A stretch of DNA of 64,000 nucleotides from a virus (lineage: Duplodnaviria > Caudoviricetes), in the IMG/VR virus record IMGVR_UViG_2791355104_000001; one strand, given 5' to 3'. Positions 1 through 5,324 of the stretch are shown piece after piece. The position numbers and the translations under genes are program-made. The notes below the pieces were generated by a model. That model worked only from the letters and a program-made list of their open reading frames with translations, was not told the origin of the DNA and searched no databases. Numbering within the stretch: the first letter of the stretch is position 1; every line of letters begins with the position of its first letter.

Positions 1-490
1 CTTGCAGCAGAGTAGTCGCCCGTGTTGCTTGCAGCAGAGTAGTTGCCCGTGTTGCTTGCAGCAGAGTAGTCGCCCGTGTTGCTTGCAGCAGAGTAGTTGC
101 CCGTGTTGCTTGCAGCAGAGCGGTAGCCCGTGTTGCTTGCAGCAGAGTAGTCGCCCGTGTTGCTTGCAGCAGAGCGGTAGCCCGTGTTGCTTGCAGCAGA
201 GTAGTCGCCCGTGTTGCTTGCAGCAGAGCAGTTGCCCGTGTTGCTTGCAGCAGAGCGGTAGCCCGTGTTGCTTGCAGCAGAGTAGTTGCCCGTGTTGCTT
301 GCAGCAGAGTAGTTGCCCGTGTTGCTTGCAGCAGAGTAGTCGCCCGTGTTGCTTGCAGCAGAGTAGTCGCCCGTGTTGCTTGCAGCAGAGTAGTCGCCCG
401 TGTTGCTTGCAGCAGAGTAGTTGCCCGTGTTGCTTGCAGCAGAGCAGTTGCCCGTGTTGCTTGCAGCAGAGCGGTAGCCCGTGTTGCTTG
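1..490. repeat. 27-bp tandem repeat, ~18 copies, coding on the minus strand for ASNTG-xx-SA
   Basis: Unit CTTGCAGCAGAG(T/C)(A/G)GT(C/T/A)GCCCGTGTTG repeats head-to-tail with no spacers; continues off the left edge. Confidence 0.98.
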
Positions 491-851
491 CATGGCTCCT
501 ATCTTCGGTAGAATGCTTTTCGCCCTGCGTGGCTTTAGAAATGATCCACTCAACGCCTTTTTTCACAACTTCTGGAATGGAAATTTCCGCTTTAATTGTT
601 ATTTCAGCGCTGGCAATTTTTGTGTCATCACCATCCCTGTCGATATGGCCCGCGACTTCAACAGTGTGAAAAACGCTTTCAGCAGGGCCGTAGTAGCCGA
701 AAATATCCAAAGGGTTTTCACAGCTATGGAAACCTCCTTTAGCACAGCGAACAACTTCACCTTCGTGCTTATAGGTTTTGCCCACTTCGTACTGAAAACC
801 TCTGCATGTCAGGTCTTTATTGAATCCCTTGTAAGCTATTAACTTTTCCAT
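3..851 (-). CDS. Phage repeat protein (DUF7666-like N-domain plus 9-aa ASNTGxxSA repeats), 3' partial; absent from ORF track
   Basis: ATG at 851 overlaps upstream stop (TAATG). Translates MEKLIAYKGFNKDLTCRGFQYEVGKTYKHEGEVVRCAKGGFHSCENPLDIFGYY... then ASNTGYRSA/ASNTGNCSA/ASNTGNYSA/ASNTGDYSA with no stop to the window edge. Confidence 0.9.
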   Translation of the reverse strand, partial: MEKLIAYKGFNKDLTCRGFQYEVGKTYKHEGEVVRCAKGGFHSCENPLDIFGYYGPAESVFHTVEVAGHIDRDGDDTKIASAEITIKAEISIPEVVKKGVEWIISKATQGEKHSTEDRSHASNTGYRSAASNTGNCSAASNTGNYSAASNTGDYSAASNTGDYSAASNTGDYSAASNTGNYSAASNTGNYSAASNTGYRSAASNTGNCSAASNTGDYSAASNTGYRSAASNTGDYSAASNTGYRSAASNTGNYSAASNTGDYSAASNTGNYSAASNTGDYSAA

Positions 852-1231
852 TACGCCACTCTCTCCAAATTAAGTTCAAACCCATCAGGCAAACGGTGCC
901 ACTTGTTCAACTGCTCGATGATGATGTTCGCTGCATGACGTATCGTGATGCGCGCATAAGCACTCACAGCCTCGTCAGCGTCTTTATCTTCGAGTAGCTG
1001 ACAGATAGTGTCGTATTCGTCTGACTGCGCTAAATCGCCGCGTACGTCGTCATGCCAATTGATTGAAACGTTAGTTTCAGCATCGCTCCACGTTAGCGTC
1101 TCGCCGTTGCGCAGCTGACCGATTAGGAACGGCACATAGCCGCGCAGCATCTCGAAGCCGTACTCGACAGGCTCAACTAAACGTGCCGCTTCTTCGGCTA
1201 TTTCGTTGCTTATGGGGCAGGGTAAAGGCAT
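851..1231 (-). CDS. Hypothetical phage early-left protein
   Basis: ATG 1231 (MPLPCP...) with AAGGAG RBS; stop coupled to the next gene. Confidence 0.8.
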   Translation of the reverse strand: MPLPCPISNEIAEEAARLVEPVEYGFEMLRGYVPFLIGQLRNGETLTWSDAETNVSINWHDDVRGDLAQSDEYDTICQLLEDKDADEAVSAYARITIRHAANIIIEQLNKWHRLPDGFELNLERVA

Positions 1232-1363
1232 GTCGTTTCTCCTTGTTCGCAACTCGCTGTTGCAATGGCGCAATCAAAGTAGTAATTTCGGGTGAGATTT
1301 GTCGCTACTAACTAACAATCTGTACCACAACTAAAAATACAACTGATTACAACTAATGTATGT

Positions 1364-1392
1364 AATTTAGGTACAAATTAACTTGTTGTCAA
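1364..1392 (-). promoter_or_regulatory. Leftward early promoter (PL-like)
   Basis: Minus strand TTGACA (1392-1387), 17 nt, TAAATT (1369-1364); ACAACT motifs at 1327, 1339 and 1349 also occur in the cI-cro interval. Confidence 0.7.
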
Positions 1393-1466
1393 GAGATTGT
1401 TTGGTATAATTGATGGTGAAAATTTACTAAAAGATTATTTTTCTTTGCCGATAAAGAATATGCAGG

Positions 1467-1489
1467 TGTTATACTGTTTTTTTATACAG
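1467..1489 (+). promoter_or_regulatory. LexA (SOS) box overlapping an extended -10 promoter
   Basis: CTGT-TTTTTTAT-ACAG at 1474-1489 matches gammaproteobacterial CTGT-N8-ACAG; overlaps TGt-TATACT at 1467-1475. Confidence 0.8.
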
Positions 1490-1513
1490 CTCATATTCAA
1501 GGATTAATAAAGC

Positions 1514-1693
1514 ATGAAAAAATCTAGTAAATTGGCTTTTGTTTTGGCGGCTTGTCTAGGTGTAGCTGGTGCGGCTTACGCATCAGATGACAAGGAAGAT
1601 AACGGCTCAGACCTAGCTTGTAAGTTATTCCCCATGTTGTGCGGTGTTAGCACTCAAGGTGGTAATGGCGGAGGTGTTGAGCCCCCAAAGTAA
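1514..1693 (+). CDS. 59-aa predicted secreted peptide (signal peptide + Cys-x6-Cys loop + GGNGGGVEPPK tail); absent from ORF track
   Basis: MKKSSKLAFVLAACLGVAGAAYA/SDDKEDNGSDLACKLFPMLCGVSTQGGNGGGVEPPK; GGA upstream; basic-hydrophobic-AYA signal pattern. Confidence 0.85.
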   Translation: MKKSSKLAFVLAACLGVAGAAYASDDKEDNGSDLACKLFPMLCGVSTQGGNGGGVEPPK

Positions 1694-1708
1694 ATTAACG
1701 GAATGTAG

Positions 1709-2242
1709 ATGTTTGGACTTTCAGAACAATCAATACTGGATATAAAATACTTTATTGAAGATTATTCGCTGGCGCTGATGGCGCTGGCGTTTATCTCTTA
1801 CACAGTATCAGTGGGGAAGGTGACGGCTTTTAATTTGACGTTGTTTTTTGCGGTGGTACTGCATTTACTTCACCAATATATTGCGAGAACTCTTCTTCCG
1901 CTTTATGACGAGGTTGATTTCAAGCAGTTCCTTTATTATTTCTGGTATCTTTCTTTCGCAGTTACAGACGTCGTATTTGTGCTCGCAAGCTTGGCATGTA
2001 TCCGGAAATTTAAGTTGCTGCGAGACAGGGTGAGTAACTTCCTGCTCATTTGTTACTTGGGTATGGCTGCGATACAAGTCCTAAGACTTATCGATCGGGA
2101 GCTTGACATAGACGCTCTCGGAGCTGTATATAGTAACAGTATTATCCTCACTAACATTGTGGTCACCATTGCTGTAATATTGATGGCAGTGCGTGTGCTG
2201 TTGGTTAGAAGTGGCCGCGTTCTCATACCAGCGAAGGAGTAG
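1709..2242 (+). CDS. Polytopic inner-membrane protein (about 5-6 TM), unknown function
   Basis: 177 aa with several long hydrophobic segments; starts 15 nt after the peptide gene. Confidence 0.85.
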   Translation: MFGLSEQSILDIKYFIEDYSLALMALAFISYTVSVGKVTAFNLTLFFAVVLHLLHQYIARTLLPLYDEVDFKQFLYYFWYLSFAVTDVVFVLASLACIRKFKLLRDRVSNFLLICYLGMAAIQVLRLIDRELDIDALGAVYSNSIILTNIVVTIAVILMAVRVLLVRSGRVLIPAKE

Positions 2243-2248
2243 GTATTG

Positions 2249-2545
2249 ATGTTAACGATTTTTGAAGTTCTGACATTAACTGCTGCATTTATTGTATTTG
2301 GCTGGGTGATCATCGCTCACTGCAGAATAGAGAATGTAGAGGTAGAAAAAGAAATTCCTGATAATGTCATACCGTTTGGTATCGGCAAGACAAAGCGTCT
2401 GGAAGAAAACCTTCACCTGTTCTTGCAGGCCGATCAAGCTCTTGCAGATGAACAGCATGAGCGCTATATGGCTTTGTACATGCAGGCCACGAGTTCCGCA
2501 AAAGAGCTGCTGAGAGACAGGGTGGTTGAGAGAAAAACTGGATAA
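2249..2545 (+). CDS. Membrane-anchored protein (N-terminal TM, soluble helical tail)
   Basis: MLTIFEVLTLTAAFIVFGWVIIAH hydrophobic N-terminus; 6 nt after the previous gene. Confidence 0.75.
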   Translation: MLTIFEVLTLTAAFIVFGWVIIAHCRIENVEVEKEIPDNVIPFGIGKTKRLEENLHLFLQADQALADEQHERYMALYMQATSSAKELLRDRVVERKTG

Positions 2546-2576
2546 AGCTGCCGAGACATTCCGCCACAAACACAAA

Positions 2577-2600
2577 AACCGCCTACTGGCGGTTAGTTTT
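2577..2600. terminator. Intrinsic terminator between convergent operons
   Basis: AACCGCC-TACT-GGCGGTT stem with A-run before and T-rich tract after. Confidence 0.7.
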
Positions 2601-2605
2601 GGGAG

Positions 2606-3076
2606 CTAGCTACTCTTCTGAATTTGTGCGGCGGTGCATTCCTTCAAAAGATCATTAAAAGAGTTAGGGATCTCTCCGCTAGCTACTTTCTTCTTAAACA
2701 CTGTATATACATCAGTTTTAGCGTTATGCTTTCTAAGAGTGCTGTGATCATTTAGCCATGCTAATAATATCGCGCCCTCTCCAGAGTTGTACTGGAAAAA
2801 TAATCGAAATCGATACGGCATGCCTTTTTTCACTCGGCGCCAATGCTTCATGTTCCTTTCGCGAAATGTATCGCCCAGGTTAAATTGCTTATGAGCTGGA
2901 TCGGGAGCGACACGATGAAATATGCAATTATTCACTGACTCGTAAAGCTTAAAGGTGGGATGTTGATCAAAGTGGTCTGGATCTTTTTCTGATAGTTTTA
3001 CAACTTCAGACAGTAAGTTGGAATAAATGATTTGGAAGGCTTTGTGCCAGTAAAATGTCCATCCGTGAACTTTCAT
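2606..3076 (-). CDS. yhaV: YhaV-family type II toxin (RelE-superfamily RNase)
   Basis: HGWTFYWH N-terminus, WRRVKKG..YRFRLFFQY and AWLNDHSTLRK..AKTDVY motifs. Confidence 0.85.
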   Translation of the reverse strand: MKVHGWTFYWHKAFQIIYSNLLSEVVKLSEKDPDHFDQHPTFKLYESVNNCIFHRVAPDPAHKQFNLGDTFRERNMKHWRRVKKGMPYRFRLFFQYNSGEGAILLAWLNDHSTLRKHNAKTDVYTVFKKKVASGEIPNSFNDLLKECTAAQIQKSS

Positions 3077-3081
3077 ATTAA

Positions 3082-3273
3082 CTAACCTTCCAATAGTTCT
3101 CTTTTTTCTCTCGCAGCCTGAGCCCTTGCCTCTATGAGAGATATAGTATCAAAAATACTATCAGGTATGGGCTCGATATTTACACCGTTCTCAATGTCAC
3201 TTGCGATAGCCTTAAGAAGCCGCTCTTCACTATCCCGCTCCGACATCATTTCCTTGAAATTCAAAATATTCAT
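3082..3273 (-). CDS. Putative antitoxin of the YhaV toxin (PrlF C-terminal-like, no AbrB domain)
   Basis: Small acidic ORF directly upstream of toxin, AAGGAGG RBS, LLKAIASDI helix. Confidence 0.65.
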   Translation of the reverse strand: MNILNFKEMMSERDSEERLLKAIASDIENGVNIEPIPDSIFDTISLIEARAQAAREKRELLEG

Positions 3274-3305
3274 GGATGCCTCCTTGGTTTGAAACGAGGT
3301 CGCGA

Positions 3306-3333
3306 ATTATACGCGCCTACACAAACTGTGCAA
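3306..3333 (-). promoter_or_regulatory. Sigma70 promoter of the TA moron
   Basis: Minus strand TTGCAC-16-TATAAT. Confidence 0.7.
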
Positions 3334-3441
3334 TACTTAGTATGCATTCATTGTGAAAAAGTTCAAGTTATATTGCTTCACTGTGTATACTTAGAGGGGT
3401 AGTGGCAAAAAACTTAAGAAGCGACACGATGATGTATTTAG

Positions 3442-3651
3442 ATGGCTGGTATGACTTATAGCAAGCAATTGTTCAAAGGGCTAAAGATGAAAACGAATGA
3501 AGAGAACTTACTTGCCAAAGAGGATGCGAACCTTGAGGTTGCGCCGGATAGAGTGGAGCCAAAATTTAAAGCGACCCGAGCTAACTTGGAAAGAATTGCG
3601 CGATTAAATAATGCCAACACGGAAACCGGCTCGGATTTTGTCGAAGTTTAA
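3442..3651 (+). CDS. Small hypothetical protein (start uncertain)
   Basis: 69-aa ORF followed by a hairpin; no recognisable motif. Confidence 0.4.
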   Translation: MAGMTYSKQLFKGLKMKTNEENLLAKEDANLEVAPDRVEPKFKATRANLERIARLNNANTETGSDFVEV

Positions 3652-3679
3652 TCTGCTTCGGCATTAGCAGAAGGCAATC

Positions 3680-4126
3680 TTATGCCTTCTTTAGGTTGTT
3701 GATTGACAATGATGCAGTTACGTAGTCACCGGTAAGCTTTCCTTTAATCGAAATTTCAAAAGCTCTCCTAAGTAAATCAAAATCGACGTTTTCATAACCC
3801 TTGCCGTTTTGAATTCTGATTGACTTATAGCTCTTGATTGCCTGATCCAGCGCCTCTGTGGCCGCATGAACGTAAAATTCCGGATCAGTTAGCTGCTCAC
3901 CTTCCTCAACTTTCCTTTCCCCTTTTAAAAGCCAAGCTCTACTTACGCCTAGTGCTTCGCATATAGGGTCAAAGTACTTACTTGTCCTTGTAACATTAGC
4001 TTCCATTCTGGCTATGTTTTGCTGCGACGTTCCCACCGCTGCGGCGAGATCATCCTGCGACCAGCCTTTCGCATTCCTTGCTTCAGTAATTCTGCTTCCG
4101 ATTGTAGACAAGATAAATAATCTCAT
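3680..4126 (-). CDS. cI: CI-like XRE repressor lacking an S24 autocleavage domain
   Basis: IGSRITEARNAKGWSQDDLAAAVGTSQQNIARMEAN HTH; divergent from cro; 148 aa from ATG 4126; helical C-terminus with no peptidase motifs. Confidence 0.85.
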   Translation of the reverse strand: MRLFILSTIGSRITEARNAKGWSQDDLAAAVGTSQQNIARMEANVTRTSKYFDPICEALGVSRAWLLKGERKVEEGEQLTDPEFYVHAATEALDQAIKSYKSIRIQNGKGYENVDFDLLRRAFEISIKGKLTGDYVTASLSINNLKKA

Positions 4127-4177
4127 TGTTTCTTTTCCGTGAAATATACAAATTCGCTTGTAGTTTAACAAACAAAC

Positions 4178-4220
4178 TTGCTTGTTGTCGAGAAAACAAC
4201 TAAAGTATGTAAAAACAACT
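4178..4220 (+). promoter_or_regulatory. PR-like promoter and operator
   Basis: TTGCTT-17-TAAAGT (4178-4206); 17-bp inverted repeat GTTGT-N7-ACAAC at 4184-4200; ACAACT at 4196 and 4215. Confidence 0.65.
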
Positions 4221-4237
4221 ACGGCAATTGTGTAGAA

Positions 4238-4525
4238 ATGGATGAGATGACCGCGCTAAAAAAGGCGATTGAGATAATTTCAGGCGGGAGCCAGAAGAGG
4301 TTCGCTGAACTTGTGACTGAGCAGGTCGAGTTATCGAATTCCTGCGCTTTATCTTTGAGCCGGAAAATACCTTCTTTGAGCCAGCAACTTGTGAACTACT
4401 GGATCAAGAATGACAAACCTTGCTCACCTCACTATGCGCCAATCATATCAAACCTGACTAAAGGCGAAGTCAAGATGCACGAACTGCGCCCAGACGTTTA
4501 TCCGGTAGAGGACAAAGCGGCGTGA
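4238..4525 (+). CDS. cro: Cro/YdaS-like repressor
   Basis: ALKKAIEI..GSQKRFAEL...SQQLVNYW...GEVKMHELRPDVY pattern. Confidence 0.8.
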   Translation: MDEMTALKKAIEIISGGSQKRFAELVTEQVELSNSCALSLSRKIPSLSQQLVNYWIKNDKPCSPHYAPIISNLTKGEVKMHELRPDVYPVEDKAA

Positions 4526-4977
4526 GCAATGGCGGCTACACATCATATATCGAAGGGTTGACCGTGAAGCAACCTGATCAATACGGCCTTTACGCACTAT
4601 TACCAAAGAATGAAAAGGGCAAGGAAAGTATGAGTAACGGCGACGCAGCTACCCACACACTAAAACTCGAAGTTGAGAATGCCGAGCAAATTGCGGCGCA
4701 GTTGGAGCAACTTACTGAGTCAGAACTTCTTAAAAGCCTTTCCGAGGGATCGCGAAATTTCCTTCTTCATAGCCTCGATAGAGGCCTTCTGGACTTCGCT
4801 GTGTCTACCGATAGCTCCGCACCGGGAGCAGGTGATCTTGTCATGCGGTTTGGGATTGTCCGGCTGCTCGAACTTTTGGCTACCGCACTTGGCACATTTG
4901 AGAGTGAGTTCAATGCTGGGCATAACGATTCCTTGTCTATTGATTCCAAATCTAACCATACCAGAGGTACTGAGTAA
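4522..4977 (+). CDS. Hypothetical early protein (start 4522 or 4630), overlapped by an antisense gene
   Basis: GTGA coupling to cro stop and TAATG coupling to next gene. Confidence 0.55.
   Translation: MSNGGYTSYIEGLTVKQPDQYGLYALLPKNEKGKESMSNGDAATHTLKLEVENAEQIAAQLEQLTESELLKSLSEGSRNFLLHSLDRGLLDFAVSTDSSAPGAGDLVMRFGIVRLLELLATALGTFESEFNAGHNDSLSIDSKSNHTRGTE
4720..4923 (-). CDS. Small zinc-ribbon protein, antisense and nested
   Basis: MPSIELTLKCAKCGS...ITCSRCGA (two CxxC); AAGGA RBS before ATG 4923; resembles the ECs_2282-type phage family as recalled. Confidence 0.7.
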   Translation of the reverse strand: MPSIELTLKCAKCGSQKFEQPDNPKPHDKITCSRCGAIGRHSEVQKASIEAMKKEISRSLGKAFKKF

Positions 4978-5324
4978 TGAGCAAGATTAACCAACTGAAG
5001 TTAGCGCTTGAAGTGCTGGATTTATTAGAAGAGTACCATGACATCACAGTAAAAATTCAGGACTTCCAAGATGCGCATTTTAGACCAGTAGAAGATGTAT
5101 GGGCTGGCACATTGCATCTTTCTCTGAGTGGAATCTTGGTGGCAAGCCCTGAGGTATTCGCAGACTTCCTTTCCAAGATTAATGCTTCAAAGGAAATCAA
5201 AGCCCTCATCACTGACAAAAATGGCTACCCAGTAGACAAAACTGTCATTGAGCAAGCTATTCAGAATGAACGGATAGACGCGATTGAAAAGCGTCTGGAC
5301 AAGAAAGAGTACCGCTATGTGTAA
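4977..5324 (+). CDS. Hypothetical phage protein
   Basis: 115-aa coupled ORF. Confidence 0.75.
   Translation: MSKINQLKLALEVLDLLEEYHDITVKIQDFQDAHFRPVEDVWAGTLHLSLSGILVASPEVFADFLSKINASKEIKALITDKNGYPVDKTVIEQAIQNERIDAIEKRLDKKEYRYV

Follow-up and report, generated by a model that had tools for sequence, protein, structure and literature searches.

How a prophage whose repressor lacks the means to cleave itself would respond to DNA damage, and why an exported peptide and two membrane proteins should be encoded beside such a repressor, are two questions raised by a three-gene operon (pep59, mem177 and tm98) in the viral record IMGVR_UViG_2791355104_000001. The stretch of DNA analyzed here (64,000 nucleotides, hereafter the window) corresponds to G000:C1:366893-430892, inside a 4.3-Mb single-contig genome, and the control region of a lambdoid, marine prophage in an Alteromonas-like host occupies its first 5000 bases (1-5000). 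To our knowledge, many temperate phages have repressors that are unable to self-cleave, and the route of their induction is mostly unknown. Our main conclusion is that the three-gene unit, which is predicted to be LexA-repressed, is a phage-borne copy of an envelope module. No description of the module was found in the curated resources that were consulted (Pfam, NCBIfam, PADLOC and PDB, together with PHROGs, which gave only weak matches for the module proteins), and the initial annotation of the DNA had likewise not recognized it as a known system.

Predicted LexA control of the operon

LexA box 1 (CTGTTTTTTTATACAG, positions 1474-1489) is an exact match to CTGT-N8-ACAG with an AT-rich spacer, and it overlaps an extended -10 element on the plus strand (TGtTATACT, 1467-1475, with TG at 1467-1468 and TATACT at 1470-1475), precisely as the initial annotation had it. 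The bare 8-base pattern is not enriched in the genome (66 found versus 64 expected), and the window has 2 copies versus 0.88 expected. Sites were scored with a matrix trained on eight host boxes, including those of recA, dinB, uvrD and yebG, whose training scores are 20.5-26.6 bits. Box 1 scores 21.5 bits, and just 13 sites of at least 18 bits are present across the 4.3-Mb genome. The same motif, exact and with AT-rich spacers, precedes host recA, dinB, uvrD and yebG. In six diverged relatives of the phage (loci L022, L023, L024, L082, L083 and L087), a box is found in the same place, 25-40 nucleotides before the ATG of the peptide gene, and it is the lone site of at least 18 bits in each examined locus; a lone strong LexA site at this distance is found in seven phage lineages. 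The LexA control proposed earlier from the single box agrees with all of these observations, and from the sequence comparisons we consider the box genuine and predict the operon to be LexA-gated.

The initial annotation listed this one box and overlooked a second strong site inside mem177. LexA box 2 (CTGTATATAGTAACAG, 2124-2139) is also an exact match, scores 18.0 bits and is among the 13 genomic sites of at least 18 bits. It overlaps an SOS-promoter-like site on the plus strand (2103-2139; TTGACA at 2103-2108, N18, and TATATA at 2127-2132), and together the two look like an internal SOS promoter for tm98. Box 2 with its perfect TTGACA is private to the phage of the window and is not found in the relatives. 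Apart from boxes 1 and 2, the host-trained matrix detects no site above 14 bits in the 64-kb window.

One candidate that was considered and rejected is a hidden gene on the opposite strand that box 1 would serve: the interval from the first PL gene to the box contains no minus-strand open reading frame (ORF) of at least 30 amino acids, and the fixed distance from the box to the peptide ATG in the relatives also disfavors such a target.

Upstream of box 1 is an element resembling a sigma-28 (FliA) promoter, TAAA-N15-GCCGATAA (1428-1454, plus strand), which matches the pattern exactly and may function as such. Of 15 Alteromonas-type loci, 11 have GCCGATA(A/G/T) at a distance of 57-72 nucleotides upstream of the peptide ATG, the carriers being every Alteromonas-type chromosomal copy of the module and four phage copies, including that of the window. 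The host flagellin gene is preceded by TAAAG-N15-GTCGATAA, an element of the same sigma-28 type. Sigma-28 control was rejected as a general feature of the module, because the element is absent in other genera.

The peptide and the two membrane proteins

The first gene of the operon, pep59 (1514-1693, plus strand), is an ORF of 59 amino acids with a Sec signal peptide and a predicted product of 36 amino acids. Its leader has what is expected for Sec export and cleavage by signal peptidase I, namely a basic n-region (MKKSSK), a 17-residue hydrophobic core and a cleavage site between AYA and S, and the product would accordingly leave the cytoplasm. The predicted product has a C-KLFPML-C loop (C-x3-P-x2-C) and then a GGNGGGVEPPK tail (GGNGGG-x-EPP). 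The signal peptide, the 36-amino-acid product, its loop and its tail had been correctly read in the initial annotation, which also described the ORF as unannotated. The ORF exists as described, but it is called as a gene, as are the other two, in the draft assembly GCA_001938545.1; this assembly, whose strain is the same or nearly identical, is the lone further contig with all three genes in a word-indexed search. The leader also contains a lipobox-like LAAC, as do those of the four closest phage peptides, and it is possible that pep59 is a lipoprotein; most of its relatives have no Cys in the leader and share the same Sec layout, which weighs against this.

The second and third genes follow pep59 at short gaps, each with its own ribosome-binding site. 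A word-indexed protein search gave only self matches for all three proteins, the phage collection yielded no match to DNA or tblastn queries, and a DNA search of 40 relatives was likewise negative. The idea that the three are orphans was nevertheless rejected, because HMMER and six-frame searches found relatives of mem177 (1709-2242, plus strand); relatives of the peptide and of tm98 were then located by their position beside mem177 homologues. An exhaustive HMMER search gave 74 cluster representatives of the mem177 family (115-203 amino acids). Six-frame searches detected the family in 14 of the 78 host-genus genomes and in 31 of the 401 from the order, among them 19 of the 20 genomes of one small-genome genus. 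These counts are drawn from genome samples, and the related phages are non-independent observations.

The initial annotation gave mem177 five or six transmembrane (TM) helices. It is indeed polytopic, and the number of helices is five according to an AlphaFold2 model built from a 64-sequence alignment (predicted local distance difference test score, pLDDT, 94; predicted template modeling score, pTM, 0.86). In the family alignment (A1), W79, Y80, D87, Q123, Y141 and N149 are nearly invariant. By the positive-inside rule, the protein of this uncurated inner-membrane family would have its N-terminus outside and its C-terminus inside; W79, Y80, Q123, Y141 and N149 would then lie in the periplasmic half, with D87 further into the membrane. 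Neither mem177 nor 64 of its relatives match any Pfam family at E ≤ 0.1, SdpI included, and the family has no match in NCBIfam, PADLOC or the PDB sequence profiles. Searches with the model (Foldseek against PDB, and VIA-wide) returned only generic helical bundles, with Z scores of up to 10.7 on designed proteins, and a protein atlas contained only unnamed clusters, one of them auto-named MreD.

The initial annotation named unlinked homologues of the peptide and membrane genes as an outcome that would refute it, and the searches do not show such an outcome: nearly all mem177 homologues follow a small gene whose product carries a C-terminal Gly-rich/EP(P) motif. A motif-bearing small ORF is found within 200 nucleotides upstream in 36 of 57 ORFs for five-TM (5TM) proteins, compared with a background of approximately 0.4% of the other small ORFs in the same loci. 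The count used a strict motif pattern, and the misses are mostly second tandem 5TM copies or near-motifs outside the pattern. The polytopic membrane gene starts 0-18 nucleotides after the small exported-peptide gene. In most genera a third gene is present, which encodes an N-terminally anchored protein of 94-130 amino acids. We regard a conserved module of peptide, 5TM protein and bitopic protein as established by these gene arrangements. Three uncurated protein families are thereby defined, together with a peptide motif, GGxGG-x-EP(P), and they are widespread in Alteromonadaceae-like bacteria.

Within the peptide family alignment (A5), C36, P40, C43, N51, G52 and G54 are invariant. At each locus of the host genus, a gene for 66-72 amino acids immediately precedes either a single 5TM gene or a tandem pair; the encoded peptide combines a Sec leader and a C-x3-P-x2-C loop with GNGxG and a Pro/Lys-rich tail. 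In farther genera the small upstream protein retains the Gly-rich/EP(P) motif alone, sometimes in 3-14 tandem copies, and its N-terminus varies, with a Sec leader, a double-glycine-type leader (in two distant relatives, L034 and L088) or no recognizable signal. Because the motif alone is retained in those genera, the Gly-rich/EP(P) tail is taken from the sequences as the hallmark of the family, with the Cys loop limited to the Alteromonas/phage subfamily. FlgM-like N-termini were considered for some of the distant peptides and rejected, having no Pfam support.

The tandem arrays of 3-14 Gly-rich/VEP units are found in L035, L045 and L054, which belong to one small-genome genus, and in L031, from another genus of the host family. 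One such peptide consists of GGGGVEPIAV repeated 14 times and is reminiscent of precursors of multi-copy pheromones or of ribosomally synthesized and post-translationally modified peptides.

In the host genus, the 14 genomes with the module have it at one syntenic site. The host of the window has a chromosomal copy of its own (G000:C1:3854754-3855996, equivalent to L012:4755-5997), which consists of a peptide gene and two 5TM genes and is flanked by an RNase J-like gene and a gene for a 1425-amino-acid periplasmic-sensor PAS-GGDEF-EAL protein. It has a GTCGATAA element, similar to a sigma-28 -10 sequence, and, like the other chromosomal copies, no LexA box.

The third gene, tm98 (2249-2545, plus strand), had been described as encoding a TM-anchored protein, and this holds: the product has one N-terminal TM helix followed by a helical hairpin, and there is no lipobox. 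Basic residues after the TM helix would, by the positive-inside rule, make the hairpin and the C-terminus cytoplasmic. Every related phage has an orthologue in the equivalent place, and the alignment of these (A3) has a conserved L-x-x-F-L-x-A-E-x-A-L ... Y-M-x-L. A profile of the phage versions detects the positional equivalents elsewhere weakly (E values of 0.004-2).

The repressor and the role of the module

The cI-type repressor gene (3680-4126, minus strand) encodes a protein of 148 amino acids with a 434-like DNA-binding domain (E value of 2e-18 to 434 cI). The protein consists of a helix-turn-helix (HTH) domain, a linker and a three-helix C-terminal domain, and a TGDY motif is invariant in its homologues, even those with as little as 29% identity. 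An S24 peptidase (autocleavage) domain is absent, Pfam matching only the HTH and the structural model concurring, and searches gave no structural relative of the C-terminal domain, which is novel.

The closest relatives of mem177 (35-43% identity) are all in prophage or viral contigs of identical layout: a leftward PL operon; peptide, 5TM and third genes rightward; a repressor of 148-150 amino acids leftward; and a YdaS/Cro-like gene rightward. The loci are L022 (identical to IMG/VR contig L025), L024, L080, L082 and L083, with the short contig L023 showing the trio alone. Flanking recombination and replication genes differ among these phages. The trio is flanked by PL/OL and the 3′ terminus of the 434-like repressor gene in at least 10 related prophages. 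When the search was started instead from the repressor, five homologues in five genera (29-43% identity) were found among 300 other genomes of the family, and in each of them the trio directly adjoins the 3′ end. The trio adjoins or overlaps the 3′ end of every repressor homologue found, the most divergent of which has 29% identity, and L019 retains the trio layout beside an unrelated HTH repressor. The spacing between the third gene and cI is a gap of 1-10 nucleotides or an overlap of 8-38 (for example, a 1-nucleotide gap in L024 and overlaps of 8 in L082, 10 in L089 and 38 in L019), except in the window, where a toxin gene is inserted, and in L083, where a gene for a secreted protein of 146 amino acids is. 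From gene order, we regard it as established that in phages the module is constantly linked to a family of uncleavable repressors. The family as a whole is associated with a single uncharacterized three-gene envelope module, which in one clade carries the prophage's only LexA operator.

The reading that we favor, tentatively and with the sense that it may well be wrong, is that the module is an SOS-gated relay of peptide and membrane receptor that inactivates or sequesters the uncleavable repressor. DNA damage would remove LexA, and pep59, mem177 and tm98 would be made. The peptide, exported by Sec and oxidized, would dock on the periplasmic face of mem177, and a complex of mem177 and tm98 would relay the signal inward. 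The cytoplasmic hairpin of tm98 would then act on the adjacent 434-like repressor, which is unable to self-cleave, and the relay would in this way be the SOS input of the prophage. We infer the binding of the peptide to mem177 and every step that touches the repressor. Such a relay would explain why the module is present in every phage found with a homologous repressor, why the strong LexA sites of the prophage all fall in the operon, and why a private SOS promoter has been added before tm98. If the module does feed the switch, it would represent a new wiring of DNA damage, and perhaps of extracellular peptide signals, to induction via the membrane.

Several points weigh against this proposal. 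Copies of the module are present on chromosomes with no repressor nearby, and the basic job of the module is hence not phage induction. An SOS input is not universal even in phages, since a LexA box is missing from L080, from L019 (which has a CTGA..TCAG palindrome at that position) and from the three repressor-linked copies that are most distant. Contact between a module protein and the repressor is proposed from gene context, and hhalign comparison of tm98 with the cI family found no sequence relation to the cI C-terminal domain; mimicry of the SinI/SinR type by tm98, considered as a candidate mechanism, is unsupported for the same reason. The antirepressors known to date are small and soluble, and an export signal is not recognizable in some relatives of the peptide. 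Finally, genes between OL and cI would be co-inherited with the immunity region anyway, and this could alone explain part of the linkage.

There are precedents for part of the scheme. Coliphage 186 Tum and N15 AntC are LexA-controlled antirepressors of non-cleavable repressors. In the Gifsy prophages, the LexA-controlled antirepressors GfoA and GfhA act on uncleavable prophage repressors (PMC3121763). The phage of the window is similar in having a repressor with no autocleavage domain, a LexA box on the promoter of a phage operon, and no other strong LexA location in the prophage. It differs in that the operon lies within the immunity region, unlike the Gifsy genes, which are outside it, and in that the products are predicted to be an exported peptide and two membrane proteins rather than a small soluble protein. 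The module also has no homology to any antirepressor family in Pfam, PHROG or NCBIfam, and homologous modules exist outside phages.

A second precedent is SdpC/SdpI/SdpR of Bacillus subtilis, in which a peptide-bound polytopic protein, encoded convergently with the repressor gene, sequesters the repressor at the membrane (PMC2910880). The two systems have in common an exported peptide, a polytopic protein, an HTH repressor, convergent genes and extra paralogues of the membrane protein, the mechanism being proposed by analogy in the present case. They have no sequence or family relation; the module has a Gram-negative host, a phage setting, an additional bitopic protein and a repressor of XRE/434 rather than ArsR type. 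A full trans-envelope version of the relay, with a looped peptide, a five-helix receptor, a bitopic partner and a repressor captured at the membrane, and with peptide released by kin priming or triggering neighboring lysogens, seems to us quite unlikely. If true, it would be the first peptide-based lysis-lysogeny communication in Gram-negative phages, and one built from a host module. It would resemble arbitrium (AimP/AimR/AimX) in that a phage-encoded peptide, here predicted to be secreted, is located beside the lysis-lysogeny control region. However, no gene for an AimR-type TPR receptor and no AimP-like propeptide is found between PL and cro, the candidate receptor is in the membrane, and the Gram-negative outer membrane would hinder entry of a 36-amino-acid peptide.

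The explanation that comes nearest to the relay, a possible one that we nonetheless hold in some doubt, is a cassette similar to those of colicins or microcins. In this case a peptide toxin would be exported upon SOS induction and freed by phage lysis, mem177 would confer immunity, tm98 would assist immunity or release, and the association with cI would be positional. Colicins are under SOS control, and the operon has in common with colicin and class II microcin operons its SOS box, its small size, and a peptide gene followed at 0-18 nucleotides by an immunity-like membrane gene. The peptides are Gly-rich, some (L034 and L088) with double-glycine-type leaders; extra 5TM copies with no peptide are found in tandem, like orphan immunity genes; and the distribution in the host genus is patchy. 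On the other hand, the predicted mature peptide is hydrophilic, net anionic and devoid of a toxin-like domain, and what is conserved is a short motif, repeated in tandem in L031, L035, L045 and L054. Pfam and NCBIfam give no match to a colicin or microcin toxin, an immunity protein or a lysis lipoprotein, which the third gene does not encode, and the operon provides no route of export across the outer membrane. The near-universal and syntenic presence of the family in the small-genome genus is also not what such a cassette would predict, nor is its retention in phages across the whole repressor family, to which phage copies are strictly tied, despite adjacent insertions. Should the genes prove to be a toxin/immunity set, marine bacteria would have a new family of SOS-induced bacteriocins, freed by phage lysis.

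It is also conceivable, although we judge it unlikely, that the module serves the envelope during the lytic phase and has no role in the switch. After induction it might remodel or mask a receptor, the flagellum or the membrane, thereby excluding superinfecting phages or saving progeny from adsorption to debris, and LexA control would time its expression accordingly. All three products are envelope proteins, and the sigma-28-like elements before Alteromonas copies, together with the GGDEF-EAL neighbor, hint at a role in motility; those elements are, however, missing outside Alteromonas-type loci. The slot occupied by the module is that of the rexAB-type accessory genes, which are located beside cI in lambdoid immunity regions, and lambda rexA/rexB also include one polytopic membrane protein. 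Unlike rexA/rexB, the module is convergent with cI rather than co-transcribed, is LexA-repressed by prediction and includes an exported peptide, and there is no homology between the two. PADLOC and PHROGs reveal no similarity to exclusion or defense proteins, and exclusion genes are usually exchanged freely, whereas the module is kept by each phage that has the repressor family.

Regulation at the RNA level, in which a LexA-controlled transcript running into the convergent cI gene would lower repressor by antisense pairing or collision, the proteins being incidental, is very improbable: the 3′ ends of the third gene and cI do abut or overlap in L024, L082, L089 and L019, leaving no room for a terminator, but the three proteins are conserved at the amino acid level across large distances and on chromosomes that have no cI, and the operon is parted from cI by the toxin insert and a terminator-like hairpin in the window and by another gene in L083.

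Other features of the control region

The region begins with the early-left genes on the minus strand, which encode a DUF7666 protein and a protein of 126 amino acids. They are preceded by the PL-like leftward early promoter, identified by a promoter scan (TTGACA-17-TAAATT, 1364-1392, minus strand), and the block that contains it (GTAATTTAGTACAAAT...TTGTTGTCAA) is also present in L022, L023, L024, L080 and L082. Back-to-back with PL is a rightward promoter-like sequence read directly from the DNA (TTGTTG-16-TATAAT, 1383-1410, plus strand). It overlaps putative operator repeats, TTGTTGTC, in a block conserved among related phages, and it may be a second, distal promoter of the operon under repressor control. 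Repeated TTGTTGTC / ACAACAA elements are located at 1360-1430 (PL) and at 4140-4200 (between cI and cro) and are kept in the related phages; from their placement they are probably the operators of the repressor.

Downstream of tm98, at 2577-2594, is a G+C-rich hairpin with T runs on both sides, resembling a bidirectional terminator. The initial annotation had closed the operon with a terminator, and the hairpin is present, but just 4 T follow it on the plus strand; the minus-strand call was made by a scan. The placement of the operon between PL and cI was also correct, although it made no mention of a YhaV-family toxin gene (Pfam PF11663, E value of 8e-38) and a 63-amino-acid upstream ORF that intervene before cI (2606-3273, minus strand). 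The small ORF is possibly an antitoxin gene; it has no Pfam match. In L022, L024, L080 and L082 the position is empty of a YhaV gene. The junction of module and cI in other phages has either nothing inserted or a different insert, that of L083 encoding a Cys-rich protein, and the junction is therefore a point of cargo insertion.

Between the toxin gene and the repressor gene, and convergent with the latter, is an ORF of 54-69 amino acids (3442-3651, plus strand) that the draft assembly annotates as a gene and that has no family match. Half of a LexA-like site (13.9 bits) is located upstream of it at 3379. To the right of the repressor gene is the YdaS/Cro-like gene on the plus strand.

At the opposite end of the region, the ORF for the DUF7666 early-left protein (3-851, minus strand) continues beyond the edge of the window. 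Its end, at 1-490, contains at least 14 tandem 33-bp repeats that encode NTG(D/N/Y)(Y/R/C)SAAS units. The number of repeats may be collapsed or variable, because the protein is annotated as 280 amino acids long in the same strain's draft assembly.

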